Shown: positions 30,001-33,000 of the stretch, one piece after another
How the letters are laid out: every line of letters starts with the position of its first letter
Numbering within the stretch: position 1 is the first letter of the stretch
UHGV virus genome: UHGV-0123874
Length of the DNA: 40,222 nt
Source: a virus
Reading direction: 5' to 3' (one strand)
Position numbers: made by a program

Positions 30001-33000
30001 TATTTCAAGCATTTCGCTTGCTTGATATTTGCCACCAGAAATCTCTTCGATTTTTGAGGCGTATTTCGTTTTCCCAAAAAACTCAGTCTTAGGGAGGAAG
30101 CCGTTTTTGAGCCACTTATAGACAGCCCTTTCGCTAACTCCACAAGCCTTCGCAACTTCAGGTATGCCGACACCTTTAATCGGCTCATCAAGATTTTGCA
30201 TAGGAATATCCTTTTTCGTACTTTCAGTACGCATTATGATTGAACTGAAAGTTTTTGCAAGTGCTTTAGTATCGTACTCATGGTTCAGAATGAAAAAGTG
30301 CGCAAAGAATTCGCCCAGCGGCTAGCGCAAGCCTGTAAAGAAGCTGGTCTTGATGAACATGGTAGGGGAATGGCTATAGCCCGTGCCCTTTCTCTTTCGT
30401 CCAAAGGCGTTAGCAAATGGTTTAATGCTGAGTCTTTACCGCGTCAGGAAAAAATGAATGCGCTTGCGAAATTTCTAAACGTTGATGTTGTTTGGCTTCA
30501 GCACGGCACTTCGTTAAATGGAGCGAATGATGAAGATACTCTTTCATTTGTTGGCAAATTAAAAAAAGGGTTAGTGCGCGTGGTTGGTGAGGCAATTCTT
30601 GGTGTTGATGGTGCCATCGAGATGACCGAAGAACGCGATGGGTGGCTCAAGATTTATAGCGATGATCCAGATGCCTTTGGTCTTCGTGTGAAAGGAGACA
30701 GCATGTGGCCCAGAATAAAATCAGGAGAATATGTACTCATTGAGCCTAACACCAAAGTATTCCCGGGTGATGAGGTGTTTGTCAGAACCATCGAAGGACA
30801 CAACATGATCAAGATTCTTGGCTATGACAGAGATGGAGAATACCAATTTACAAGCATCAACCAGGACCACAGACCAATAACGTTGCCTTATCATCAAGTA
30901 GCAAAGGTGGAGTATGTGGCTGGTATTCTGAAGCAATCTCGCCATCTGGATGACATCGAGGCAAGGGAGTGGCTGAGAAATTATTAATACCAATAGCATA
31001 GAGACGAAAATGCGACAGGTTTTAGGTACAAATCATAACCCTATCCACAAACAACGTTGTAAATATACACATAAGACTATTGTAAAAAAAGCTCTATCCC
31101 AGTAAATGCGGTTGCAAAATGGGTTGATCGAGCATATATAAGGAGTATAGTTAGTGACCCAAGATGAAACGAATGAATATCTGAAAACCTTAGCATTGGT
31201 TCCAAGTGCAGAGGCCTCCGCAGAGGAGAAGCAGATATATAGCGTCAAAAAGGCTGTAATCGGTCTGATTGAATTTGTTACAACCAGTCTTGAAGAGCTT
31301 GGAATTGAAGGGTTGCATGAGTTAACAAACCCATCTCTTGACGAATTAGATGCAGAGCTAGAGAAACTTGACCAAAAAGCTGATGCAATCAATGAACTAA
31401 ACTTAAAGCAAATCATCATATTTGCACAGATTTTAATCAAAAACATAAGAGAAAAGAATCCTGATTTGTGCTCTGAGGGATCAAAACTGCTCAAGAGTGC
31501 TAAATCGGGTCTTTGATACTTACAGAGCGGAGGATAAACATGTCTAGAACTGAACATATCAAAGATATGCTTAAAAGTGCGGATCGAATCAATCAGATTA
31601 TTGCTGAAATGAAGCAGAGAAAAGCAGAAATGCTAGCATCAAAGCTTCCAATGGCAGCATAACCAAAAACACCCGCTTCGGCGGGTTTTCTTATTCCCCT
31701 AAAAAGATCAAACAACTCCACATTAGCTTTTTTGTGCCCACAGTTTTCTACCTAGCAGTTTTCTTTGCCTCCCGATCCACCATCTAAAAACACATAACCA
31801 ATTGTATTTATTGAAAAATAAATAGATACAACTTGCTAAACCACGCAATTCTGATCCCTGCCGCATAACCTTCATCCGCAACATTTACAAAAATAAATTT
31901 CCTTATATATCAAAATCATATTTCGTAGAGTTAATAAATCATAAACGATTCGTACCAATAGTTCTTGATAATACCGAACTACTGGTTCATTATTATCGCC
32001 ATCAGCAGGACGTTGGAAGCCAAACGGAACAGATTGGCGGGCTCTTTAACTTCGATGGGGCGCTGACAAAGCGCAAACAGATACCAAACGAGATGGGTTT
32101 GGCGGTGATGTGAATTGCAGCAGCAACGACAGCAACCAGAAGATCAGCATCTGGCGCATTACCACCAAAGCCATTTCACATGAGGAAAACATCATGACGG
32201 TAATCGTGTACGGAAAATCAACATTTGCAGGAAATGCCAAAACTCGCCGTCATGAGCGGCGCAGAAAGCTGGCTATCGAGCGTGATTCCATCTGCAACAT
32301 CATCGATTCGATCTTCGGCACAGACAGTGAGGAACCTGTTCAGGAAGCCCCGAGAAAACGTTTAAGTCTTTCTGAAAAAGCAATATCACTCGGCAACATT
32401 CGTAACCAAAATACCGACGAATGCAGTGGAAGTATTTGCCTGCCAAACGTAGCCATTTACTCGGCAGGCTACCGGAAATCCAAACAACTGACAGCGAGGT
32501 AATTATGGATCTAAGTAAATTAGAAAGCTCTTTAGAAGCATCAGTAAAAAATTTTATATCAGTAATTGATGAAAAAACTGAAGATATTAAGAAAGCAACT
32601 ATTGCAGAACTTATTCAAACAAGAGCCAGTACATTTGATCATCTTCCTGATGATGTCCGGTCAGCGGCAATTCGCGTATATGTAACGGCACTAAGCAATA
32701 TTGAACCACCAATTGATGAAGAATCAAGAGATATTCAGAGAAAACGGTTTGAGATGTTAGCCAGCAACATTATCGCGGGTTTTACACAGCTCTTAACAAA
32801 AGAGCCTGCCAGTGAAGCTGTTCGCCAGCAGGCTCAGGTAATGATTAATCAGGCAGAAACTATTTCACGTGAGCGAAAAGAGTTTCGTAAAAGGGTTTCT
32901 GAGCTTCAAGCACCTCAACCGCAGCCGCTGAACCCTCCTTCTCAACAAACTGAATAACTTCATCAAGATGCTTTTTTGCATGTGATGATTGCTCAGGTGG

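Follow-up and report, generated by a model that had tools for sequence, protein, structure and literature searches.

The virus genome UHGV-0123874, which is treated here at its full length of 40,222 nucleotides as the window, carries an immunity region of reversed lambdoid layout, with cII (29571-29867) and cro (29974-30201) on the minus strand, a cI-type repressor gene (30280-30987), divergent from cro, on the plus strand, and the N antiterminator gene (32194-32502), also on the plus strand, further downstream. The repressor has the Pfam domains HTH_3 and Peptidase_S24 and belongs to phrog_4, and N was identified by PF25694 (E 7e-40). Between cI and N, on the cI strand, lies a small cassette composed of two open reading frames (ORFs), here designated gene A (31154-31516) and gene B (31540-31662), which are preceded by a promoter-like element and followed by an intrinsic terminator (31671-31695). 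An initial annotation of this DNA had described a self-contained two-gene cassette in the slot equivalent to that of lambda rexAB, and both parts of this description hold: the position between N and cI, the latter flanking the cassette and lying outside it, is that of rexAB, and the cassette possesses its own terminator and a conserved 5′ element resembling a promoter, within a hypervariable slot.

The extent of the cassette was determined by BLAST comparison with two prophages, L002 and L003, which have the same cI and other cargo. Homology to both ends at 30982, five bases short of the stop codon of cI, and picks up again at 31758, inside a common T-tract, GTTTTCTTTGCCTC (31758-31771, plus strand), which is shared with the terminator T-tracts of the other cargo in L002, L003 and L036-type loci. 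Defined by these breaks, the replaceable island, that is the true cassette, spans 30983-31757 (775 bp); the limits first proposed, 31040-31700, do enclose the features described below, but the replaceable unit is larger. The insert had also been called AT-rich, and the GC content of the cassette region is indeed lower than that of the flanks, although the contrast is modest (36-40% vs 43-50%). An Rfam scan of 30900-32300 gave nothing above the gathering score. The approximately 100 bp that follow the T-tract (31758-31860) match hundreds of E. coli genomes, including K-12-derived laboratory strains, and are probably part of the conserved region near OL/PL. Parts or all of a 2.2-kb query reaching from cI to N find matches in 1270 of 5426 complete E. 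coli genomes. Behind the same cI allele, E. coli prophages hold other cargo, namely an SDH-family Clp-fold protease, DUF3024 together with NYN, PIN, P63C, DUF1828 and HigBA proteins. The cI-N interval is known as a mosaic hotspot, holding rexAB and bstA (10.1101/2020.07.13.199331).

Gene A starts with GTG at 31154 and codes for a protein of 120 residues (WP_000189752.1, annotated as hypothetical), with an isoelectric point of 4.6 and a net charge of -9. The acidic, helical character of the product and the Shine-Dalgarno (SD) sequence ahead of its start, both part of the first description, were found again: the SD is AAGGAG (31140-31145), and the AlphaFold2 model is an all-helical, four-helix bundle (helices at residues 23-58, 61-78, 82-99 and 103-118), with a mean local confidence score (pLDDT) of 73 and a predicted template-modelling score (pTM) of 0.55. 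Relatives of A are few, amounting to 21 clusters in a word-indexed search and, in a search of 1.84 billion proteins, to 30 representatives at E < 1e-3; these homologs are single-domain, all unnamed, 59-135 residues long (100-135 when complete) and acidic in every lineage, with net charges from -2 to -9. The invariant residues G50, P60 and S61, together with L65, Q86 and L94, are mostly located near predicted helix ends, the first three adjoining the loop between helices 1 and 2 in the model, and do not form a typical catalytic set.

That neither protein resembles a named family, as stated at the outset, was borne out by sequence and structure searches. Neither A nor B matched a named family in Pfam, NCBIfam or PADLOC; PHROGs gave unnamed families only, PDB sequence-profile searches returned no match and Foldseek comparison of the A model with PDB and BFVD gave nothing below E 0.4. 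In PADLOC-DB 2.0, A matched only AbiEi (E 0.004 over 60 residues) and B matched nothing. Several specific assignments of A were considered and discarded: an HPt domain, recurrent among the Foldseek matches, because the family alignment shows no conservation of the candidate His; a HEPN domain (Rx4-6H), because A has no conserved Arg or His; a Doc/Fic protein, because the Fic motif is absent; and an Ocr-like DNA mimic, because the net charge is merely -2 to -9.

Gene B opens with ATG at 31540, six nucleotides after an SD of its own, GGAGG (31529-31533), in agreement with the first description, and codes for an amphipathic helical peptide of 40 residues (WP_256204659.1) that ends in PMAA. Its hydrophobic moment is 0.44, against 0.20 in shuffled sequences, and its net charge ranges from -1 to +4 across lineages, that is from neutral to basic. 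Homologs of B form 51 clusters, nearly all of 40 residues, a few reaching 41-46 by N-terminal extensions, and come from Enterobacterales hosts, among them Hafnia, Citrobacter, Enterobacter, Morganella, Yersinia, Klebsiella, Pantoea, Cronobacter, Providencia and Serratia. The gene is under purifying selection, with a mean proportion of nonsynonymous differences (pN) of 0.29, a synonymous one (pS) of 0.67 and a median dN/dS of about 0.26. In every related locus read for which downstream sequence was shown, B is opened by a GGAG-type SD and ATG, while A begins with GTG in 63 of 69 loci. The intrinsic terminator is also present as annotated: it consists of a 6-bp GC stem (31671-31686) with a UUCG loop, followed by a T-run (-11 kcal/mol, z -2.65), scans as a terminator on the minus strand too, and has a counterpart after the small ORF in 63 of 65 related loci.

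At the C-terminus of B, Ala39 and Ala40 are invariant and Lys38 is nearly fixed, immediately after a three-residue linker formed by the most variable positions of the peptide (35-37, entropy 2.3-2.9 bits). The AA ending is found in 49 of the 51 clusters, the two exceptions being truncated or frameshifted; a B sequence that lacks it (L138) comes from a low-quality assembly containing Ns. Lys stands at -3 in 40 of 43 sequences, the peptide of the window having Met there, and the ending is often preceded by basic residues, as in KKAA and RKAA. Since all four Ala codons are used at both terminal positions, selection acts on the protein terminus and not on the DNA. Two distant relatives, on unassigned metagenomic or read-assembly contigs, have small partner ORFs that end in KKSA and KKVA. 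On a short contig (L139), a truncated B-like ORF of 31 residues (1501-1596), with no AA end and no A upstream, is located directly downstream of the S subunit of a type I restriction-modification system; this ORF could represent a relic within a defence island.

Upstream of gene A, a -35-like hexamer TTGCAA (31112-31117) is followed, after 17 nt, by a -10-like TATATA (31135-31140), forming the candidate promoter P1, which is present as first described (31112-31140) and is conserved at fixed distance in 29 distinct upstream variants. The TATATA also opens a conserved 22-nt element, TATATAAGGAGTATAGTTAGTG (31135-31156), which comprises, in addition, the SD AAGGAG, a TATAGT and the GTG start at 31154. 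The general pattern of the 5′ region is TTGnAA, 17 nt, YATATAAGGAGTAT(A/G)(G/A)T(T/A)A and then a GTG, TTG or ATG start, and the extended pattern gives one match in the window and none in 100 shuffles. This 5′ element is nearly invariant over the 29 variants, which come from the A clade and from a second clade, A′ (described below), whose loci were located by scanning for the pattern itself. The core of the 22-nt element does not change, variation being confined to the first base, two bases of TATAGT and the start codon, and the DNA upstream of the -35-like hexamer exhibits no conservation among the variants. The element is better conserved than the proteins A and A′, which have diverged almost beyond detection.

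The reading of this region as a promoter is a tentative one. The sigma-70-like hexamers are conserved at fixed spacing, also in a context without an upstream repressor gene, but the -10 of P1 overlaps the SD, so that transcription from P1 is predicted to start downstream of the SD, and a second, overlapping promoter-like site exists. This site, P2 (31124-31151; TTGATC, 16 nt, TATAGT), was obtained by consensus scan; over the 29 variants it has the form TTGAtc, 16 nt, TAT(A/G)(G/A)T, its TTGa motif being common and its -10 keeping TAxxxT in every lineage. The predicted P2 start likewise falls downstream of the SD, just after the start codon, and would give B-only transcripts. As to read-through from upstream, no terminator-like site was found on scanning the interval between cI and gene A, and PRM and PRE transcripts should therefore read into the cassette. 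The position of the A start codon itself is secure, since GTG, TTG and ATG alternate at one site and every lineage has an open frame there, even though the N-termini differ in length.

The association of the two genes was followed from both sides. On the A side, the loci read were 47 from IMG/VR, that of Klebsiella phage vB_Kpn_RAH1 and that of E. albertii; all A homologs with downstream DNA in the fetched sequence, down to 28% identity, are followed by an ORF of 30-40 residues ending in AA and by a terminator. On the B side, an A gene was found immediately upstream in 9/9 places inspected. A scan of IMG/VR with the 21-nt core of the 5′ element retrieved 72 loci, of which 31 carry A, 38 carry the second protein A′ and three neither in complete form: L076 and L132 have unrelated ORFs, and L128 has only a 36-codon fragment of A′. 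The A′ protein (phrog_13858) is helical, 113-128 residues long, and has homologs that are all annotated as hypothetical; it gave no meaningful match in the family searches, and a search of PADLOC-DB 2.0 with 12 A′ proteins gave one weak CARF match. Its partners are ORFs of their own, 39-44 residues long and unrelated in sequence to B, each with a terminator after it, which end in QKAA, PLAA, PKAA, PQAA or KKAA; in one of them the residue at -3 is thus Leu (LAA). A and A′ are related at the profile level only (hhalign P 4.8e-4 over 94 columns), in an alignment that superimposes NPS(L/F) and (D/N)xDxLC motifs, and on this profile evidence they are remote homologs. Over both clades, the small ORF ends in AA in 65 of 65 IMG/VR loci; of the four loci where a small ORF is missing, three stop at the end of a contig and the fourth is an aberrant copy. 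Judging from this comparative pattern, A and B are co-inherited and diversify as cognate pairs. The joint conservation of the promoter/ribosome-binding-site element, both ORFs and the terminator in dozens of loci, and not the consensus scans, indicates that the arrangement is more than chance.

The exact cassette occurs in 4 of the 5426 E. coli genomes, the A group at 28% identity in 32 and the A′ cassette, directly after a LexA-family repressor, in 89; together, these types are present in about 2% of the complete genomes (4 + 32 + 89 of 5426), including Shiga toxin-producing (STEC) strains of serogroup O103. Among sequenced phages only one per clade was found, Klebsiella phage RAH1 for A and Proteus phage Pm34 for A′. 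Identical B, together with its A, is located behind three repressor alleles in Yersinia and behind two in Morganella. The Citrobacter copy of the cassette occupies one end of a P2-like prophage, where it lacks a preceding repressor gene but retains the 5′ element. The variety of repressors and this prophage-end copy indicate that the promoter/ribosome-binding site, A, B and the terminator travel as one unit. In the Citrobacter locus (L059, 1762-2125 and 2560-3170), the cassette is about 450 bp downstream of ssrA, the transfer-messenger RNA gene that is the attachment site of the prophage and encodes the natural LAA-ending tag; this adjacency is probably coincidental.

On the grounds of these comparisons, the region 30983-31757 of this lambdoid prophage is a mobile moron of two genes, situated in the rexAB/bstA hotspot. 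As is typical of morons, it has an intrinsic terminator of its own and an insertion/replacement polymorphism, with sharp breaks at 30982/30983 and 31757/31758. With lambda rexA-rexB it has in common the slot between cI and N/PL, the two-gene operon, the orientation of cI and a terminator before PL, and both are presumably co-transcribed from PRM. RexA is a protein of 279 residues and RexB a polytopic membrane protein of 144 residues; A and B differ from them in being small, soluble, helical proteins that lack hydrophobic segments, B being an amphipathic charged helix, and the cassette has a conserved candidate promoter element of its own. Indeed, no match of the cassette proteins to RexA or RexB was found in Pfam, PHROG or PADLOC. 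BstA of Salmonella BTP1 occupies the same hotspot, is expressed in the lysogen, has its own Rho-independent terminator and is variable between prophages (10.1101/2020.07.13.199331). It is, however, one protein of larger size, whose self-immunity depends on a DNA element, aba, and no similarity to A or B was found. A literature search by accession, PHROG identifier and topic found no description of the A, B or A′ proteins, and the A/A′ modules, as far as their sequences and profiles define them, are a previously undescribed superfamily. What is new is the protein family; the lysogen-expressed moron in the immunity hotspot is already known as a kind of element.

As regards function, the initial annotation saw here a candidate for a lysogen-expressed defence or toxin-antitoxin-like module. 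We tentatively favour, as a possibility and not yet as a probability, the view that A and B form a lysogen-expressed toxin-antitoxin-like or abortive-infection pair, in which B would be the protease-labile partner of A. In such a scheme, the cassette would be expressed in the lysogen from its own sigma-70 promoter and by read-through from PRM and PRE; B would be made in excess of A, as its ATG start compared with the GTG of A suggests, would bind A by its hydrophobic face, holding it inactive, and would be continuously turned over by ClpXP-type proteases via the ssrA-like Ala-Ala end. If the synthesis or stability of B were disturbed, for instance when host gene expression is shut off by an infecting phage, A would be freed and might then bind a cellular or phage target in a non-catalytic manner, thus blocking growth or phage development. 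The strict linkage of A and B, their co-diversification, the invariant Ala-Ala, and the ATG and strong SD of B compared with the GTG of A give circumstantial support to this proposal. Type II toxin-antitoxin systems, such as HigBA, a compact two-gene unit that related E. coli prophages carry in this very slot between cI and N, resemble the cassette in that one partner is plausibly protease-labile; like them, the cassette has adjacent, co-oriented small genes that are always inherited together. Unlike them, neither A nor B matches a protein family, shows a recognisable toxin fold or contains an antitoxin domain of the HTH or RHH type.

Several observations weigh against a toxin-antitoxin-like function. 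No homology of A or B to a toxin, antitoxin or defence family was detected in PADLOC, Pfam or NCBIfam, and no HTH, RHH or AbrB domain was found in either protein by Pfam, while type II antitoxins are usually DNA-binding. The overlap of the P1 -10 with the SD would leave the translation of A from the candidate promoter of the cassette unexplained. The location is weak evidence, since the slot also holds cargo without an assigned function. Finally, the residue that precedes Ala-Ala in B is usually Lys (Met in the window) and not the favoured Leu.

This last point concerns the similarity of B to the ssrA tag and to C-terminal ClpX degrons, which lies in the invariant terminal Ala-Ala, often following basic residues. 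Among ClpX degrons, the RseA and LexA fragments both end in VAA and MuA ends in RRKKAI, and ssrA-type degrons have Leu or Val at the antepenultimate position, compared with mostly Lys in B. In a selection of random tags in E. coli, potent C-terminal degrons were almost exclusively ClpXP-dependent and ssrA-like, with terminal Ala-Ala in 91% of the top 100 selected tags; Ala-Ala alone was insufficient for strong degradation, and Leu was favoured upstream (PMC10862746). The favourable consensus used here for comparison was [L/F/Y/W]-[L/A/R]-L-A-A, with Leu or another hydrophobic residue at -3 (PMC10862746). Given the Lys at this position in most B peptides and the Met in the window, an ssrA-like degron function of B is at most plausible, and it is at this strength that B may be regarded as a substrate of ClpXP-type proteases through its Ala-Ala end.

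Among the alternatives, the one that survives best, although we consider it unlikely, is that the cassette encodes an accessory or regulatory factor apart from defence, acting either on host physiology (stress or biofilm formation, as TomB/YmoB) or on the maintenance of lysogeny and the tuning of induction of its own prophage. The inferred co-transcription with the repressor and the lack of defence-family matches would fit such a role, A may resemble the biofilm modulator YmoB at the level of the predicted fold, and many morons are fitness factors and not defence genes (10.1101/2020.07.13.199331). However, the cassette is dispensable and can be replaced, downstream of the same repressor, by nuclease, protease or toxin-antitoxin genes, and its occurrence in a non-repressor context, at the end of the Citrobacter prophage, argues that it is not tied to one immunity system.

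A reversal of the polarity of the pair, on the model of TomB-Hha, a type VII toxin-antitoxin system, is in our judgement decidedly improbable: the acidic, first-encoded A, as a TomB/YmoB-like four-helix bundle, would neutralise B, a short-lived basic effector whose level would be limited by the Ala-Ala end. The comparison of A with TomB/YbaJ gave an hhalign probability of 0.1% and no Pfam match, and that of B with Hha/YmoA an hhalign probability of 0.15%. Moreover, Hha has 72 residues, four helices and no Ala-Ala end, whereas B is a single helix of 40 residues, and TomB-Hha is chromosomal whereas the cassette is a prophage moron.

Still less likely, in our opinion, is a protease decoy, with B competing for or inhibiting ClpXP or another AAA+ protease and so stabilising phage or host proteins in the lysogen, and A buffering or delivering B. 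An invariant ssrA-like C-terminus on an otherwise variable peptide would suit a decoy, as would the position of the cassette in the slot of rexAB: RexB has been reported to inhibit ClpP-dependent degradation, and lambda CIII is an amphipathic-helix inhibitor of FtsH. On this assumption, the need for a strictly co-inherited and co-diversifying A of 120 residues would remain unexplained, and the cognate diversification of A and B argues for a specific interface between the two and not for a generic decoy. Lastly, the suggestion that A and B are chance ORFs, or that the real gene is a 174-residue antisense ORF (31033-31557, minus strand) that is longer than A in the window, is refuted, because stop codons interrupt the antisense frame of other lineages (open runs of 49-111 codons vs 180 in the window type), A and B show protein-level conservation under purifying selection, and GTG, TTG and ATG alternate at the same A start site.

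The surroundings of the cassette offer some further observations. A PL-like promoter lies ahead of N (31965-31993, plus strand; TTGATA, 17 nt, CATTAT by consensus scan). E. coli 214-4, which is among the four genomes that carry the exact cassette, has an insertion of ISEc43, an element of the IS66 family, between cassette and N region (L001, 5971-8396), and in a Yersinia prophage with the same cassette a Sequestin-family gene (PF21825) is located between cassette and N (L053, 3596-3793), which is another example of stacked cargo in this interval. Several related prophages have, just past the cassette terminator, a convergent ORF of approximately 63-81 residues on the minus strand (L004, 4037-4282; L009, 5586-5777; L018, 5693-5896; L034, 5594-5794), absent from the window; some of its products end in GNVIGKG.NRDAA, and it may represent another moron family of the cI-N slot. 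Directly after N, the window contains an ORF of 150 residues (32505-32957, plus strand), overlapped by one of 98 residues (32860-33156, minus strand); Pfam gave no convincing match for either, and the former had no PHROG match. A homolog of the Ral antirestriction protein follows (33324-33524, plus strand; PF11058, E 1.6e-48) and ends in NNKAA, thus sharing its C-terminal tripeptide with most B peptides; this may be a coincidence, or KAA termini may be recurrent in small lambdoid early and lysogenic proteins.

Most cargo of the cI-N interval is uncharacterised, although the interval is known to harbour exclusion systems that are expressed in the lysogen, rexAB and bstA among them. The cassette described here is a compact unit of 0.6 kb, easily cloned, and its comparative signatures are unusually clear, namely the linkage of two genes, their cognate diversification, a C-terminus resembling a protease tag and a conserved 5′ control element. 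If it is truly a defence or toxin-antitoxin module, it would represent a new protein family and a new sensing principle, with the degron built into the peptide partner; otherwise, it would provide a tidy model of a natural, gene-encoded ssrA-like degron. A broader proposal, which we regard as rather doubtful, is that A, A′ and their Ala-Ala-tailed peptides constitute an unrecognised superfamily of prophage two-component modules across Enterobacterales, in which the peptide tag would serve as a proteolytic timer or sensor of a non-enzymatic four-helix-bundle effector. If this were true, the modules would form a new toxin-antitoxin or abortive-infection class that reads the translation or protease status of the host under phage attack, and the ratio of A to B would be determined by the 22-nt element, for instance if the inner promoter produced transcripts of B only.

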